DNA from: Octopus sinensis
Lineage: Eukaryota
NCBI RefSeq assembly: GCF_006345805.1
Contig: NW_021825638.1
Span: 1-14,764, forward strand
Reading direction: 5' to 3'
Length of the DNA: 14,764 bases
The notes under the pieces were generated by a model. It saw nothing but the letters and a program-made list of their open reading frames with translations. It searched no databases and had not been told where the DNA came from. Position 1 is the stretch's first letter, and every line of letters begins with the position of its first letter. Both the position numbers and the translations under genes were made by a program. Positions 4,227 through 13,212 of this stretch are shown here, in pieces.

Positions 4227-4598
4227 ACTCTTTACTCTTTACTCTTTTACTTGTTTCAGTCATTTGACTGCGGCATGCTGGAGCACCACCTTTTAGTACT
4301 TATTCTATCGGTCTCTTTTTGCCGAACCGCTAAGTGACGGGGACCTAACCACCAGCATCGGTTGTCAAGCAATGCTAGGGGGACAAACCTAGACACACAA
4401 ACACACGCATACATATATACATACATATATACGACAGGCTTCTTTCAGTTTCCGTCTACCAAATACACACTCACAAGGCATTGGTCGGCGGCCGGGCTAT
4501 AGCAGAAGACCACTTGCCCAAGATGCCACGCAGTGGGACTGAACCCGCAACCGTGTGGTTGGTTAGCAAGCTACTTACCACACAGCCACTCCTGCGCC
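4227..4598 (-). mobile_element. tRNA-derived SINE with head and tail, (AGTAAAAG)n-type tail
   Basis: Minus-strand head GGCGCAGGAGTGGCTGTGTGGTAAG...GGGTTCAGTCCCAC has pol III A and B boxes. There is an internal microsatellite and a tail ...GACTGAAACAAGTAAAAGAGTAAAGAGTAAAGAG. The tail is shared with 6643-6759. Confidence 0.88.
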
Positions 4599-4899: not shown

Positions 4900-5248
4900 A
4901 GTATAAGTGAGAATCTCCTTATTTACATTAAAACTCTATTCTTCTATTTATTTTTTTATTCCTTTATTTATTCTTGTATCTATTTTACCACTGACTCCTT
5001 GACCACTCCCCTAAGTATGATATTTTTGCGCTATGCCTACCCCCCAAAAAGTCCCCCACTACCACCCCTTTAAACCTGCCTAAATGTATAAAGGCCAAAA
5101 CTATTCCTGGTAACTAGCTTCCTGATGATTTCTCTTGAATGAACAGTTCTAGTCCTGTAGAAGCTCCTTCTATATAATAATTAATTTTACTCTGCTATGT
5201 ATTGAGTACCTTATTTCACTGTGGGTTAACCCGAATCAACCCGGGACC

Positions 5249-5315: not shown

Positions 5316-5505
5316 GGAGAGTTCATGAAAAAAAAAACAAAAGACGAAGACAGGTGGCGTAGAAAACAAGCAGATGTATTAGTATAACGCTCAGGAATTG
5401 GAAAAGTATTTTACGTTTCGAGCCTACGTTCTTCTACAGAAAGGGACACAGAAAAAAAAAAACAAGGGAGAAACGAGGAGCGAAAAAATGTGTGTAGTGG
5501 CTCGA
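5316..5505 (-). mobile_element. About 190-nt minimal-hammerhead cassette, family B copy 1 (HHR at 5408-5444)
   Basis: Minus strand CCUUU-CUGUAGA-A-GAAC-GUAG-GCUC-GAAA-CGU-A-AAAU. Colinear with 6924-7115 and 11615-11804. Abuts (TA)n at its 3' end. Confidence 0.75.
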
Positions 5506-5929
5506 TCTAGTGGATCAGGGATGACTTGGACGAAGGGTCATCGCAGCGAGAGATAGTAGAGGGATAGATCACAATAAAGACGCCACAAACTGCTCGTAGA
5601 AATGAACAAAGAAAGTGCGTGTGTGTATAAGAGAGTACATCAAAATTCGATCAGAGGTTATGTTAGTCTCAGGAAGAGATGGTGTCAGCCAAGGAAATAC
5701 TGGTTCAATAACTAATATTATGGGGGAATTGATGTCCTTAAAATAATAGTTATTTTCATAAAAACATGTAGTTTATATTCATATAAAAGAAGAAAAATAA
5801 AATGGAGATTGGGAAGTTAATAATTGTTTATTATTAACAACGAATCAACCATTATCCCAAACAACTGCTTCAATTAAAACTAAGTGAATTAATTATATAT
5901 TAAATTCATATGCTCTGAGCATAATATCT

Positions 5930-6219
5930 TCTCGTAACCATGTCATCGACCAGACTATCAGGTGTAATATATATAGCTGGTCACAATGCAATCTGCGTCG
6001 TTTTCGTTTTGGGATGATGGTGAGCAGGCTAACATTCCACCACCCCGGCCTTGATTGGAAGGCTGTACTGTCACAGGGTTACCTATGAACTGCTAAGCAG
6101 ACTGGAACAGCGTAAAATGAAGTGGTTTGCTCATGAACACAATGTGTTGCCCCATCCGGAAATCGAATCCACGATCCAGTGAATGTGGCTGTAACAGCGT
6201 AACCACGGGGCCACATGCT
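5930..6219 (-). mobile_element. Older, diverged tRNA-derived SINE with CORE-like centre
   Basis: Minus-strand head GCATGTGGCCCCGTGGTTAC...GGATTCGATTTCC (A and B boxes) followed by GTGTTCATGAGCAAACCACTTCATTT. Its 3' region (plus strand CGACCAGACTATCAG...GCTGGTCACAATGC) is homologous to 6277-6320. Confidence 0.75.
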
Positions 6220-6258
6220 TTAAACAATATATATATGTGTATATATATATATATATAT

Positions 6259-6560
6259 ATCACGTGATCACGTGACCGACCAGACCATCAGATGTTGTTA
6301 CACATCGCTGGTCACAATGCGTTCGCATTGTTTTAGCCTTCGAATGACGCCACCCCGCTGGCTAAACGAGCAGGCCAACAGAAGAAAGAGTGAGAGAAAG
6401 TGTGGTGAAAGAGTACAGCAGGGATCACCACCCCCTGCCGGAGCCTCGTGGAGCTTTTTTGTGTTTTCGCTCAATAAACACTACAACGCCGGTCTAGGAA
6501 TCGAAACCGCGATCCTACGACCGCGAGTCCGCTGCCCTAACCACTGGGCCATTGCGCCTC
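6259..6560 (-). mobile_element. tRNA-derived SINE, full length, (CACGTGAT)n tail
   Basis: Head GAGGCGCAATGGCCCAGTGGTTAGGGCAGCGGACTCGCGGTCGTAGGATCGCGGTTTCGATTCC has A and B boxes. The tail is GTCACGTGATCACGTGAT. Flanked by (TA)n and (CA)n. Confidence 0.88.
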
Positions 6561-6642
6561 ACACCACACACACAAACACACACACACACACACACACACA
6601 ACACACACATATATATAATATATATATATAATATATATATAT

Positions 6643-6759
6643 ACTCTTTACTCTTTTACTTGTTTCAGTCATTTGACTGCAGCCATGCTGGAGCACCGCC
6701 TTTAGTCGAGCAAATCGACTCCATGACTTATTCTTTGTAAGCCTAATATTTATTCTATC
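6643..6759 (-). mobile_element. 5'-truncated SINE (3' tail of the 4227-4598 family)
   Basis: ACTCTTTACTCTTTTACTTGTTTCAGTCATTTGACTGC..CATGCTGGAGCACC matches about 4234-4287. No tRNA-like head is present. Confidence 0.85.
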
Positions 6760-6923
6760 ATAAATCAACGCTTACAGTTCCTTGCGCATCCGATTGGGCC
6801 AAGACGCTCACCCATCAAATTCAGCCAAATTAACTGTATAGATACACAACTGTCTAATACGACATATAGCACACACATACGTGTGCGCGCATATATGCAT
6901 ATGTATATATACATATATGTATA

Positions 6924-7115
6924 TTCGCCATGCAGGACCGCTGTAAACTACAAGTTGTTTTTCACTCTTTGTTTATTTTCTCTTATTCCTTTCTCTTGTG
7001 GAGCGTAGGCTCGAAACGTAAAAGACTTTTTCATTTTTCCCAAGCGTCAAACTAATGTACTTGCTTGTTGTTCATACACCAATCTCTGTCTTTTGTTTTT
7101 CTAAAAATGTCAACT
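6924..7115 (+). mobile_element. About 190-nt minimal-hammerhead cassette, family B copy 2 (core degraded; motif at 6988-7024)
   Basis: Starts TTCGCCATG, like the 11804 end on the minus strand. CCUUU-CUCUUGU-G-GAGC-GUAG-GCUC-GAAA-CGU-A-AAAG keeps stems I and II and GAAA, but the CUGA box is mutated. Microsatellite lies on both sides. Confidence 0.75.
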
Positions 7116-7830
7116 ATCTATATATATATATATATATATACTATATATAATATATATATATATATATAATATATATATATATTATATATCTATATAATAT
7201 ATATATAATATATACATATATACACAATATATATATATATATACACCATGTTTCACTAGATACAGTACAATTTTTCAAGTTTTAATCTTTATATTTTAAA
7301 TTGTTTTCATAATTTCTTTTGGGGATTATTATAGTTGATTTGGAACAAAAGAATTCCAAAATCGATATCCAGCATTTCTAGCATTTCACAATCTCATCTC
7401 CAAGAATTAGATTGAATCTATTTTTGTTCTTCCTTATTTACTGATTGAATTTGTTGTAGACTTTCCTGACAAAGGGTTATTGACCGCTGGGGTGATGTAT
7501 CAGAAGCCATGCGTCGATTTACTTGTCACAGACAAATTTTGATTTTGTTTTTCTCTGACTGTAGCGTACTGTTAATTTTTTGATGCGTTATAATTGTTGT
7601 ATTGTATCGCGATATGGGTTTATCTGCCATACTTAAAGTTCTATTTTCGTGTGCAATTTTATAAAGTAAATATTTTCTTCTAATATTTCTCTAATTTCCT
7701 TTTGTGGTGCGTAGTGTAATGTAGTGCAATAGCTCCATCCATCTATCCAGCCATCCATCAAACCATCCGTCCGTCTGTCTATCTGTCTGTCTCTATATAT
7801 GTATGTGTGCAAATACATACGTACGTATAC

Positions 7831-7909
<79 letters not shown>

Positions 7910-7932
7910 TATATATATTATATACATATATA

Positions 7933-9211
7933 TAAGTTCCCGCGGTTTTTTAAAAAAATTTAACTATTTTAAAAGGTTTAATAAAAAAAATAACAATTAA
8001 TTAACCAATAATGTATTCACCCTTGCTGTTTACAACTTCTTCCCAACGTTCAACAAGATTTTCAATACCTCGTTGGTAGAACTCACCCGATTTCGACTCG
8101 AAAAATTGATCCAAGTTCTCAATTCTGCATTAGTATTGAACGAAACTCCGCGCATAGCATTTGAAAGAGATCGATAGAGGTGGAAATCCGTTGGTGCCAA
8201 ATCAGGAGAGTACGGCAGGTGTGCCAGCATTTCCCAGCCATGCGTTTGAATGGCTTGCTTTGTCATATTGGCGATATGAGGGCGGGCGTCGTCGTGTAGC
8301 AGAAGAACTCCATGCTGCCGATTAGTTCTTTTCTCTTGAATAGCCGTGTTGAGTCGTTCAACGTGTTGAACATAGAGTTCCGCATTGACCGTTTGGTTCC
8401 GTTCAAGCAATTCATAATAGATAATCCCTTCCCAGTCCCACCATACGCATAACATCGTTTTACGCAGATTAAGATCTTGTTTCACTCGCGCGGTGTCACT
8501 TGTTTACCGGGGCTAAGCCACTCCTTACGCTGCTTCATATTGATGTACAGTCACCATTTTTCGTCGTCAGTAACGATTCGGTAAAGAAATCGTTGCTTAT
8601 GTCCATGACTTGAGTGGTGATGAGCAAGCAAACCAGCAGAGATTGTGGTTCGTTGATTTTTGTTGTTGTCACTTAAAGCATGCTGAACCCATGCTCCATA
8701 CTTCTGAACCTTTCCCATCGAGAGAAGATGCTTCTCTATAGCAGTGTGGAAGCATTCCATTTTCTCTGCCAGTTCCCTTGTCGTTTGACGAAAATTTTCG
8801 TGCAAAAGATGGTTTAATCGCTCTTCATCGAACTCAACTGGACGGCCAGAACGAAGTAACTCTTTGAGGTTAAAATTTACATTTTCGAACTAGGCATACC
8901 CGTCACAAGCGGTTCTTACAGCTATGGCACCCCCTCGATATACGAAACAAATGTCGCAAGTAGTTTTTGCAGCCTTAAAACCTTGATTAAAAGCGAAAAG
9001 AAGGTGTCGAAAATACTCGTTTTTCTTAACTTGACATTCCATTCTGATGATATGAAAATAAACAAAAATTAACTAAAATTAACTAGAAAAAAAAAACACA
9101 AAAGAAAATAGATCCCAAAATAGAATTCTCGAAAAAAATAGATTCCAAAATTTAAAAACGTAATAAATTCCAAAATTTAAAAAAACCGAGGGAACTTAGT
9201 TGCTAACTCAA
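7933..9211 (-). mobile_element. Mariner (DD34D) DNA transposon, near full length
   Basis: Inverted termini TAAGTTCCCGCGGTTTTTT (7933) and AAAAAACCGAGGGAACTTAGTTGCTAACTCAA (ending 9211). About 1.28 kb with a transposase pseudogene inside. The outer part of the left TIR is missing. Confidence 0.95.
8001..9042 (-). pseudogene. Mariner transposase pseudogene
   Basis: ATG at 9042 (MECQVKKNEYFRH...). Motifs RSGRP, WVQHAL (WVPHEL-like), IVTDDEKW, HDDARPH and YSPDLAPTD, with 34 residues between the second and third Asp. Ends ERWEEVVNSKGEYIIG* at 8001. In-frame stops at 8890-8892 and 8551-8553; frameshifts near 8490 and 8110. Confidence 0.95.
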
Positions 9212-9399
9212 TGCATACATACTCTTCACACACATTCACACACAGACATAGACTTAATGTCAGCTGCTTCTTTATGCAAGAATTTTAATTTCTTTCTGCT
9301 GAAGGAAATATCACCATGGAAACGCCAGTGATTTCTTTGTATCTTAGCTTGCCAGAGAGTTACCAACACACTTTCCTTTCCTTACCATTCTTTGCTGGA

Positions 9400-9679
9400 T
9401 ATATAGAATGACAGAGGCATATCAGATAATGCCATAGTGACGGATTGCACTGAATCGGTTGTTGTTTCGACTGGCGTTTTCTAATCTTGTCCATCTGGTG
9501 TTGTCTTCCTCGGCCACTTCAAATGTTGTTCACATGGACCATCTGTTTTCAATATGCGACACTTGAACTTTTGAAGGGGGATTGGTCGTGTTCAATTCTT
9601 TTCTTCGACCTTACTGCCATGGGTGGGCTTCCTAGGATCATTAGTCTAATGCGCAAGACCTCCACCATGAAATAAAGTG
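9400..9679 (-). mobile_element. Possible old, internally deleted RTE-type retroelement
   Basis: Minus-strand start CACTTTATTTCATGGTGGAGGTCTTGCG...CACCCATGGCAGTAAGGTC resembles RTE 5' UTR starts as I recall them. GGCCGAGGAAGACAACACCAGATGG resembles a frameshifted C-terminal GRGRP..RW motif. The 3' boundary is uncertain. Confidence 0.4.
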
Positions 9680-9888
9680 ACAAACAAAGATAAATATGGA
9701 TGTGTGTGTGTGTCTGGTTTAAAAAGCCACATGAAACCCCATGATAGATCTAAGGTGTAAGTGCAAAAGGTGGTCAGATTCTTATAAGTAGACAACCACT
9801 ATGTATGTATGCATGTATGTATGTATGTATGTATGTATGTATGTATGTATGTATGTATGTATGTATGTATGTATGTATGTATGCATAT

Positions 9889-10443
9889 GTCAGGTCACTT
9901 TCGAGTGCTACTGGTAACATGTAACCCAGTGCTACCTGTTGCATGGTCGGGTCGTCGGCGACTAAACCGGCAACCCCACCAAGCTCGCTTGGTGAGGAGG
10001 GTGTTTATTGGTCACCCTGCGGGATGAAAAACAAAACCCGTCAAAGGGTGGAGGAACACTTGAGAGTCAACGGCCATCCAATAAATGTCTTAAAGCTGTA
10101 TCATGCTTAGAAATAATAGAAATAATCGGATTGAATACCCGATCGCGCAGTTAAACCATTGGGAGTGAAGGACTCCTAGCCTTTGTCAGGACATCCTTCT
10201 AGGAGAAGGCAACTCAGGTAACTGGGATAACTCCGACATAAAACCTGCGGCTCAGTGGTTACCGATGATGTTGACTTGTTCTTCTTTTCGGATTATGGCT
10301 GCTGTTGCTTAGTGAGTGGGATTGACTCAGTGCACAGCCTTTCCTCACTTAAAAAAATATCTTCTTGCAGAGGCATTGCACGATAACAACATTGATTAAG
10401 CTTCGTGCAATGGCCATACTCGATAACGAGGGGGCAGCCACCA
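9889..10443 (+). mobile_element. Non-autonomous RTE-derived element (5' UTR fused to 3' end) in (TATG)n
   Basis: About 555-nt non-coding island between perfect (TATG)n tracts. It carries CCTTCTAGGAGAAGGCAACTC and GGTGAGGAGGGTGT, resembling RTE 5' UTR motifs. The end CCATACTCGATAACGAGGGGGCAGCCACC resembles an RTE 3' stem-loop before a short-repeat tail. Family assignment is from recall. Confidence 0.6.
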
Positions 10444-10803
10444 TGTATGTATGTATGTATGTTTGTATGTATGTATGTATTTATGTATGTGTGTGTGTAT
10501 GTATGTATGTATGTATGTATGTATGTATGTATGTATGTATGTATGTATGTATGTATGTATGTATGTACGTATGTATGTATGTATGCATATTTAAAGACGC
10601 TATTGCAAAGAATTTTTGGCACAGTCGCCACATCGAGGAAAAGTTTTCCAAAATTAAATATTTTTGTATAATTTATCTTTAGAAAAACCAAAATCACATG
10701 AATATTTTCTGGAAAGGAGTTTTCGCATTTTTCGTAATCTGTTTCGCTGTTGACAGCATCTCAAACAGAAATTGCATGGGATTGTATTTGTGTTGACTGA
10801 TTC

Positions 10804-10840
10804 TAGCTTTGGATTAGCTTTGGATTTAGCTTTGGATTAG
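10804..10840. repeat. Short tandem repeat (TAGCTTTGGAT) x3
   Basis: TAGCTTTGGAT-TAGCTTTGGATT-TAGCTTTGGAT-TAG read directly. Confidence 0.9.
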
Positions 10841-11614
10841 AATTCTTATAAAGTGGTGGTATGCTGTCAACTTAATGTGACAGTCCCATGAAAGGAAATA
10901 ATACGACTGCTATTTAGCCCTAGGAAGCACCGCTTCCTGTCGGCCTTGACACATTTTCTGTGTCCTTATGTTTAAAAGGGGCAGATAAGCACATCCACCC
11001 AGCAATTATTCTTTTAACTTTCATAGTTGATAATTTTCTTTGTTTAGACTTAAACAATTGTGAAATAATTGAATAGAGCACCAAAACAACAGGGGAAAGA
11101 ATTGAAAGACAATGCACGTATGAATAAAATTTCATTTACAGCATCACATACCCGCAATGTAATGAAAATGTTATCGGCCAAATGGGATAAAAATTAATAC
11201 ATCGTGTTAGAGTACATAAACAGAAAAAAATTAAAATTCACCCCTGAGAAATGGTCCACGTAGAGAACATCTAAAGATATGCATAAATGCAAAATTCGAA
11301 ATACTTCCTATTTTCAGAATAAAGACGTGAAACGCTAGCTTTATGTATTCATTTTTGCAGCTGTTTAGCAGGCAATGGCTGAGAGAGGCAATACATTCGG
11401 AGGCTTTTTCTGTGTTGTTCCTAAACCTCTGCCTCATTCATTTCTTCTTAGGTAGGAAACTGTCAGTATCATTGTGTATATATGTACGTACGTGTGTGCG
11501 TGTATGTATGTAGGCACATATGTATGTATGTATATATGTTATGTATGTATGTATGTATGTATGTATGTATGTATGTATGTATGTATGTATGTATGTATGT
11601 ATGTATGTATGTAT

Positions 11615-11804
11615 GGGGAGAATTCACAAAAAAGCAAAAGACGAAGATAGGTGGTTTAGACAACAAACATGTATTAGTATAACGTTCGTGAAGTGAAAAG
11701 GTCTTTAACGCTTCGAGCCTACGCTCTTCCACAGAAAAGAACACAAAAAGAAACAAGGAGAGAAAATAAAGAATGTGTTGTGGCTAGTTATCTATCATGG
11801 CGAA
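11615..11804 (-). mobile_element. 190-nt minimal-hammerhead cassette, family B copy 3 (HHR at 11703-11739)
   Basis: Minus strand starts TTCGCCATG and contains UUUU-CUGUGGA-A-GAGC-GUAG-GCUC-GAAG-CGU-U-AAAG. It is cleanly embedded in (TATG)n on both sides. Confidence 0.8.
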
Positions 11805-11846
11805 TGTATGTATGTATGTATGTATGTATGTATGTATGTATGTATG

Positions 11847-12708: not shown

Positions 12709-12709
<1 letters not shown>

Positions 12710-12907
12710 TTAATCCAAACATGAAAACACAAAGAGAAAACACAAGACGTGAGGACGTGGAACAAGTATAGTATTATTGGACGCTCAGGAAAGAAGGAAA
12801 GAAGGAGGGTTTCGTTTCGAGCGGAGCTCTTCGTCGAAACATAGGAAAAGGAAAGATCCAAAGAAGGGAAGACGGAGGGAAAAAATCGCCAACGATCACA
12901 TTTTGAA
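12709..12907 (-). mobile_element. Minimal-hammerhead cassette, family C, left arm of inverted pair
   Basis: Reverse complement of 13001-13212 over about 200 nt. The HHR at 12809-12840 reads GUUU-CGACGA-A-GAGC-UCC-GCUC-GAAA-CG-AAAC, so the U of CUGA and the cleavage-site UU are deleted. Confidence 0.85.
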
Positions 12908-12941
12908 TATATATATATATATAAACACACGCGGTCACATT

Positions 12942-13000
<59 letters not shown>

Positions 13001-13001
<1 letters not shown>

Positions 13002-13212
13002 TCAAAATGTAACCGCGTGTGTACCGTTGGCGATTTTTTTCCTCCGTCTTTCCCTTCTCTGGAGCTTTCCTTTCCCTATGTTTCTGACGAAGAGCTCCGC
13101 TCGAAACGTTAAACCCTCCTTCTTCCCTTCCTTCCTGAGCGTCCAATAATACTATATTTGTTCCACGTCCTCCCGTTGTGTTTTCTCTTTGTGTTTTCAT
13201 GTTTGGATTAAC
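13001..13212 (+). mobile_element. Minimal-hammerhead cassette, family C, right arm of inverted pair
   Basis: 212-nt unit flanked by (TA)n and containing the HHR at 13080-13114. Confidence 0.85.
13080..13114 (+). ncRNA. Minimal type I hammerhead ribozyme
   Basis: GUUU-CUGACGA-A-GAGC-UCC-GCUC-GAAA-CGU-U-AAAC. It has a 4-bp stem I, CUGACGA, an extra A, a 4-bp stem II and GAAA. Stem III is a loopless palindrome (AACGUU) with a GUU triplet. Confidence 0.8.

Follow-up and report, generated by a model that had tools for sequence, protein, structure and literature searches.

A hammerhead motif with U at position 6 as the family consensus in cassettes of a Penelope-like element from Octopus sinensis

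The cassettes and their parent element

The stretch of DNA analysed here (the window; 14,764 nucleotides of contig NW_021825638.1, RefSeq assembly GCF_006345805.1) comes from Octopus sinensis, an animal with a microsatellite-rich genome of 2.72 Gb. It carries three short cassettes of one repeat family, B1–B3 of family B, and two cassettes of a related family, C, which serves as the comparison group. The B cassettes are, judging by their sequence, short copies of the pseudo-long terminal repeat (pseudo-LTR) of an abundant Penelope-like element (PLE), and each contains a hammerhead ribozyme (HHR) motif in which A6 of the CUGANGA core is replaced by U. The coordinates of these features are collected in Table 1.

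Table 1. Cassettes, hammerhead motifs and upstream open reading frames (uORFs) of families B and C in the window
Feature	Position	Strand	Description
Copy B1	5316..5510	-	Short pseudo-LTR copy of a Penelope-like element, subfamily Bd; 3' end abuts (TA)n
B1 minimal type I hammerhead motif	5407..5444	-	Core CUGUAGA plus extra A; U6 at 5436; predicted cut after 5412
Copy B2	6923..7114	+	Pseudo-LTR copy of about 190 nt, older subfamily Bf; begins at the 5'-end hot spot of the family
B2 hammerhead motif	6988..7025	+	Decayed core CUCUUGU; U6 at 6996; predicted cut after 7020
B2 remnant of the 4-codon uORF of the family	6930..6944	+	Codon-5 stop decayed to TGT
Copy B3	11616..11805	-	Pseudo-LTR copy of about 190 nt, subfamily Be; inserted in (TACA)n; begins at the 5'-end hot spot
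B3 hammerhead motif	11702..11739	-	Core CUGUGGA plus extra A; U6 at 11731; predicted cut after 11707
B3 intact 4-codon uORF (ATG, 3 codons, TAG)	11784..11798	-	Just behind the putative transcription start
Family C cassette	13000..13212 (motif 13079-13115)	+	Canonical A6 core CUGACGA; related, comparison group
Second family C cassette	12709..12908 (motif 12806-12841)	-	Damaged core; inverted relative to the first

An earlier note on this sequence had placed U at position 6 of all three B copies, and the cores CUGUAGA, CUCUUGU and CUGUGGA indeed lie at the motifs of B1, B2 and B3. Its description of stem II and the GAAA/CGU segment as largely kept is right overall and needs amending copy by copy: B1 has a private G-to-A change in stem II (GAAC instead of GAGC), B3 has a private change of A15.1 to G (GAAG instead of GAAA) and B2 has decayed further in the core (G5C, A9U and G at 9a), its subfamily Bf reading CUGUUGA. 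The precise TTCGCCATG start and the length of about 190 nt that the note gave to two copies belong to B2 and B3 (starts at 6924 and 11804); B1 begins a few bases further in. CUGACGA, noted as retained in family C, is found in one of the two family C copies, the other having lost U4 and the U16.1/H17 step. The two family C cassettes stand head to head around (TA)n (12709-13212), with the start piece duplicated at 12935-12947, and in this the pair resembles the inverted structures that PLE insertions typically form.

The B motif consists of a U-rich flank, a stem I of 4–5 bp, seven core letters with one unpaired base, a stem II opened by a G-C pair and the segment GAAA-CG-U-H. On sequence grounds this is the anatomy of the minimal type I hammerhead (min-HHR) of PLEs. 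The min-HHR described in metazoan PLEs (Cervera and De la Pena 2014, PMC4209133; papers are cited here from the accessible part of their text) has the same type I order, U-rich 5' flank and 4–5 bp stem I, the same extra unpaired base before stem II, the same G10.1-C11.1 pair, GAAA-CG-U-H and palindromic stem III, and the same placing in both pseudo-LTRs, with thousands of solo truncated copies. It differs in having A6 in 44 of the 44 alignment rows visible, the core variant described there being U3-A8. The published descriptor requires cuganga (PMC4209133), so it could not find U6, and since the B core lacks the A6 of CUGANGA we class the B motif as a variant and not as a canonical min-HHR. 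An Rfam scan of the window returned no hammerhead even at E<=1, its matches being only microRNA and small nucleolar RNA hits driven by microsatellites, which also dominated a repeat search of the window.

That the cassettes are the ends of an autonomous element is a point absent from the earlier note. Longer copies extend upstream through a C/T-rich untranslated region (UTR) and reach a GIY-YIG frame with a CxxxxCxxC linker before it. A 169-aa piece used as query returned 16,014 candidates at first look; the 150 that were scored have open frames of up to 1,009 aa. From these, 20 long loci, chosen mainly for long frames, were fetched, and their frames are near-intact. They encode a reverse transcriptase (RT; YIDD motif) that scores above the Pfam cut-off (RVT_1, E 9.5e-08) and a GIY-YIG domain that falls below it (E 0.006) with the YIG motif present. 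Same-strand motifs flank the open reading frame (ORF) on both sides in seven of the 20, 3.9–4.5 kb apart, giving a pseudo-LTR structure whose flanking repeats are 91–99% identical; 13 of the 14 motifs in these loci have U6 and one has C6. Over the ORF, six of 19 long copies match one of the long loci (L156) at 99% identity or more, which argues that the U6 lineage amplified recently.

The zinc-finger linker (diagnostic from 10.1101/2021.04.23.441226) places the element with Neptune or Nematis, endonuclease-containing (EN+) PLEs with which it shares RT, the linker, a C-terminal GIY-YIG domain, pseudo-LTRs and microsatellite insertion sites; the assignment comes from the linker motif and fits either clade. 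No ORF was found upstream of 30 loci of families C and D, so family C may be largely non-autonomous. Non-LTR retrozymes (10.64898/2026.07.22.740005) resemble the cassettes in that they derive from PLEs, are short and non-coding and carry a type I hammerhead. The present cassettes differ in being scattered singly and in matching the pseudo-LTR of an autonomous element; head-to-tail arrays of the 190-nt unit were not seen in about 1 Mb of loci with 238 full cassettes, where no dedicated search for arrays was made.

Position 6 and constraint on the motif

Whether B1–B3 belong to a natural core variant, as had been proposed for them, or are merely decayed copies of a family whose consensus has A6 was examined across the genome. 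A family pattern in which positions 4-9a were left free and stem II and GAAACGU were fixed gave 13,218 matches, against none for the reversed-pattern control, so the pattern is not a product of chance; all of the first 100 matches listed have U6. Position 6 was then tabulated from exact matches to a 30-mer with N7 free and the other 28 letters fixed. Among 12,974 such matches, 12,543 (96.7%) have U, 128 (1.0%) have A and 303 (2.3%) have C or G, the last class comprising 89 C and 11 G among its first 100 matches listed (manual count). Among the A6 copies every letter occurs at N7 and different subfamilies are represented, as would be expected of scattered back-mutations. Bf, the older subfamily to which B2 belongs, gave 350 matches, with 88 U, nine C and three A among the first 100 listed (manual count).

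The same result was obtained from copies that had not been selected on their core, namely those anchored by the ORF and a small set of bystander copies, from which two of 28 rows belonging to other, A6 families were set aside. U6 is present in 41 of 43 ORF-anchored and 25 of 26 bystander B copies and A6 in none; H17 is G in one of 71 rows not selected on the core. U6 is therefore the consensus of the family, and the cassettes represent a natural, fixed core variant and not decay. Each of the three copies in the window does have other private changes, as independently decayed members of an A6 family would; with U6 in 12,543 of 12,974 matches, A6 rarer than C and G together and U6 carried by near-intact elements, that explanation is ruled out, keeping next to no probability.

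A looser canonical pattern found 4,927 A6 motifs genome-wide; most of the first 100 listed belong to family C or to related families whose loops have 3 nt. Three loci (L037, L103 and L104) hold a further min-HHR family with canonical A6, in which stem II and its loop are long.

Flank features were used to divide the 238 full cassettes among five B subfamilies (80, 35, 28, 23 and 10 copies), family C (36) and family D (7); 19 copies that could not be assigned were left out. The majority sequences of the B subfamilies are 10–30% apart in their flanks, where 48 of 121 ungapped columns vary. Within the motif only two of 36 columns vary among them (Fisher p=6.5e-5 versus the flanks), namely N7 (U/A/C/G/U) and H17 (U/A), the two positions left free by hammerhead catalysis (PMC4075628); variation restricted in this way argues for a catalytic-core constraint. 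C3, U4, G5, G8, A9, G12, A13, A14, A15.1, U16.1 and an H17 other than G are kept in all five majorities, and stems I and II, the extra base before stem II and GAAA-NN-U-H with palindromic 15.2/16.2 are present. Stem I shows covariation, a C-G pair in B being replaced by G-C in C and D. The flanks of B are shared with those of C and D at 42–50% distance. Together with A6 as the general state, this makes a change in the ancestor of B the simplest origin of U6.

Contigs from metagenomes were scanned with a pattern for U6 only, stem II being left free. The scan gave 25 loci with 16 distinct stem II sequences, eight of which pair along their full length even when the one forced pair is disregarded (shuffle p 0.006-0.019 each); three have one mismatch, one is weak and four are apparently chance. 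Four of the 25 loci (L172, L181, L185 and L193) look like chance matches in gene-dense, prokaryote-like sequence. The real U6 loci fall into about three unrelated groups by DNA similarity among the matches listed; U6 is thus not peculiar to one lineage or loop, these groups having different stems, and U6 elements have no common loop sequence. Four loci (L178, L186, L187 and L191) adjoin GIY-YIG tails, of which only that of L191 passes Pfam. L191 and L178 are without the zinc-finger linker where that region is covered, which points to the Penelope/Poseidon clade by the assignment of the C-terminal motif. As a series (L171-L195) the loci present U6 min-HHRs with covarying stems II of 6–7 bp and C at H17, several of them inverted beside GIY-YIG tails of a different PLE clade. 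Viral contigs gave three matches, none with U6.

Copy ends, leader and other features of the window

B copies end 94–103 nt (subfamily medians) past the predicted cut site, at TA-type repeats, and family C copies end 102 nt past it. The inserted copies therefore extend across the cut site and were made from uncut RNA. The suggestion in the earlier note that the family spread without needing cleavage is borne out in this narrow sense; an uncut template is common to the A6 family C, however, and so does not single out U6. PAc, a Poseidon element of Anolis (PMC11167929), is comparable in having a hammerhead in the pseudo-LTR, AT-rich targets and uncut RNA as the insertion template, its RT starting about 85–92 nt past the cut site.

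At the 5' end, 41 of 114 B copies stop no more than 12 nt before a conserved ATG, four in the next 17 nt upstream and 32 run far upstream, a count that leaves out ORF-anchored Ba copies and reference copies. At this hot spot untruncated copies read CA(G/T)T, which is initiator-like (Inr-like). The hot spot would be the transcription start, in line with the internal promoter of Penelope (PMC2377424). A splice acceptor at the same place was considered and dropped, AG not being kept in all subfamilies.

The conserved ATG opens a uORF of four codons, with the first stop at codon 5 in 88 of 94 B copies that have the ATG. The uORF is kept in all five B subfamilies, its stop being TAG in four and TAA or TGA in the fifth; at the same place families C and D have an ATG followed directly by a stop. 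This pattern suggests selection on a minimal uORF in PLE leaders. In PAc the ORF starts inside the hammerhead and the accessible text of PMC11167929 mentions no position-6 variant, whereas the long ORF of the present element, with its zinc-finger linker, starts several hundred nucleotides downstream and the uORF precedes the motif.

Several other features lie in the window. Two copies of a separate type I hammerhead with the canonical core CUGAUGA (2621-2669 on the reverse strand and 5117-5164 on the forward strand) have a 4-bp stem III and a stem II opened by a U.U pair; the copy at 5117-5164 is without one A of GAAA. A broken mariner-type transposase, whose 3' piece matches Pfam Transposase_1 at E 6e-19, occupies 8030-8889 on the reverse strand. 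Between (TATG)n tracts at 9890-10440 lies a repeat of about 550 nt that is present also upstream of a cassette at another locus (L029), and recurrent repeats resembling short interspersed elements (SINEs), flanked by microsatellites, lie at 4230-4590 and 6270-6760. ARAGORN called no tRNA in the window.

Attenuated cleavage or a retained fold

The explanation that we favour, at about even confidence, is that the U6 motif is an attenuated ribozyme under continued selection, cutting as a dimer or with the assistance of protein, with insertion using uncut RNA. Changes of A6 cost 10-100-fold in activity, compared with more than 100-fold for C3, G5, G8, G12, A14 and A15.1 (PMC4075628, citing earlier mutagenesis), and by analogy U6 is likely to make the motif a slow self-cutter. 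A natural position-6 change is likewise found in the hammerhead of phage Bcep176, in which A6C is accompanied by low but detectable cleavage, below 0.1 per min and better in Mn2+ (PMC3088659, PMC7151607); that is a single phage sequence with C, whereas the U of the B motif is a fixed change, present in over 12,000 copies, and its scaffold is minimal and of the dimer type. The PLE hammerhead of Anolis cleaves only with the PLE protein, and its cleavage is dispensable for insertion in vitro (PMC11167929).

In the mechanism that we propose, transcription would start at the Inr-like site about 75–85 nt before the core and RT would prime internally about 100 nt past the cut site, the resulting 190-nt cassette being the cDNA between these two sites. 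The two motifs of a full-length transcript, 3.9–4.5 kb apart, would pair through the ACGU palindrome, and U6 would slow cleavage such that only a fraction of transcripts is cut, as a dimer or with the help of the element's protein. More speculatively, U6 might also favour an inactive rod fold through pairing of U4-G5-U6 with A15.1-C-G, and occasional cleavage might remove the capped leader with its 4-codon uORF and so license translation. A role in removing the uORF leader is plausible by analogy with viral 5'-UTR hammerheads, for which cleavage-dependent translation initiation is known (PMC13725137).

Folding predictions for five B motifs put the probability of the U6-A15.1 pair at 0.42-0.98, compared with 0 for natural A6 copies, and the rod hides the dimer palindrome. 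When whole cassettes are folded, the hammerhead monomer is not predicted to be stable (stem I pairs with a probability of 0-0.19), an outcome expected of this type and of no diagnostic weight. An unlikely but more far-reaching form of the attenuated ribozyme would make A6U a recurrent, selected throttle, fixed independently in at least two PLE clades, in which the rod locks the monomer, cleavage is left to the element's protein and transcripts are split into uncut RT templates and cut, uORF-free mRNAs.

Several observations weigh against an attenuated but working ribozyme. Part of the invariance of the motif is by construction, stem II and GAAACGU being fixed in the discovery patterns, and the bystander copies, which show no other stem II type, are a small set. 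The GUAG loop and the stem II letters are invariant across the B subfamilies beyond what catalysis needs, which fits protein binding. PLE min-HHRs are very slow even as dimers (PMC4209133), and with a further 10-100-fold loss cleavage may be functionally zero. The predicted rod is uneven, with P(U6-A15.1) of 0.03-0.96 in seven metagenome motifs, and the A6 family C has a predicted alternative fold of its own. As the metagenome scan was for U6 only, it cannot be stated that U6 recurs more often than other core changes. Insertions that start at the cut site, which would be a fossil of cleavage, are not in excess in either family. By manual count they number 16 among the 50 distinct loci in the first 100 of 201 rows listed for young B, a class in which TA microhomology pools three registers, and nine among 41 in the first 100 of 335 rows for family C; because registers are pooled, the comparison does not discriminate.

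The most serious rival, to which we give roughly a one-in-three chance, is that A6U inactivated the motif in the ancestor of family B and that its shape has been kept for the element's protein, in ribonucleoprotein (RNP) assembly or in positioning the internal RT start. The uncut insertion templates and the invariant loop and stem letters suit this explanation, as does the predicted stabilization of the rod by U6 in most B motifs. So do reports on other PLEs: for the Anolis hammerhead, catalytic mutants are without effect on insertion in vitro, and no RNA-seq read ends at the cut site were seen in the accessible part of that study (PMC11167929), while Naiads amplify without detectable canonical HHRs as far as the accessible text describes them (10.1101/2021.04.23.441226). 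Against this explanation, the variation falls exactly where a catalytic core permits it, at N7 and H17, and all four letters occur at N7, a position that the rod would pair. The change also hit one of the most tolerant core positions (PMC4075628), and U6 recurs in another clade with different loops and stems.

The long persistence and recent success of the lineage, together with the recurrence of U6 in unrelated elements, could instead mean that U6 is compensated, for instance through the extra A that lies between positions 9 and 10.1 or through a loop contact, and that its cleavage matches that of A6 min-HHRs. We consider this improbable: canonical A6 min-HHRs share the extra A, which is thus not specific to U6, the lack of a common loop sequence speaks against a loop contact, and in the accessible part of a pairwise mutation scan the CUGA region had low activity and no double mutant rescued it apart from the 3-8 swap. 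Slightly less probable still is conservation at the DNA level, in which the motif, lying about 75–115 nt behind the putative start, would be an internal promoter element of the kind known in Penelope (PMC2377424) and its hammerhead shape a leftover; the compensatory pairs in stems I and II indicate RNA structure instead.

The element type and the motif type are already known. A natural A6U hammerhead was not found in the literature searched, which did not cover the largest survey of PLE hammerhead variants (Lunse et al. 2017), and that survey could contain it. In this genome a recently amplified, near-intact U6 lineage occurs together with A6 sister families that have the same stems, and within the U6 subfamilies there are natural copies that have mutated back to A6; together they amount to a matched natural experiment. 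The survey by Lunse and coworkers reportedly comprises about 150,000 PLE variants.

The U6 lineage bears on why most PLEs keep a hammerhead, given the weak cleavage of hammerheads in vitro and their dispensability for insertion in the one reconstituted system. If the throttle form were true, there would be a class of U6 hammerheads invisible to CUGANGA-based searches. Cleavage by U6 would widen the core consensus of natural hammerheads and mean that searches by descriptor have overlooked a large class; without cleavage, the case would be one of a successful retroelement that has preserved an inactive ribozyme fold for a different purpose.

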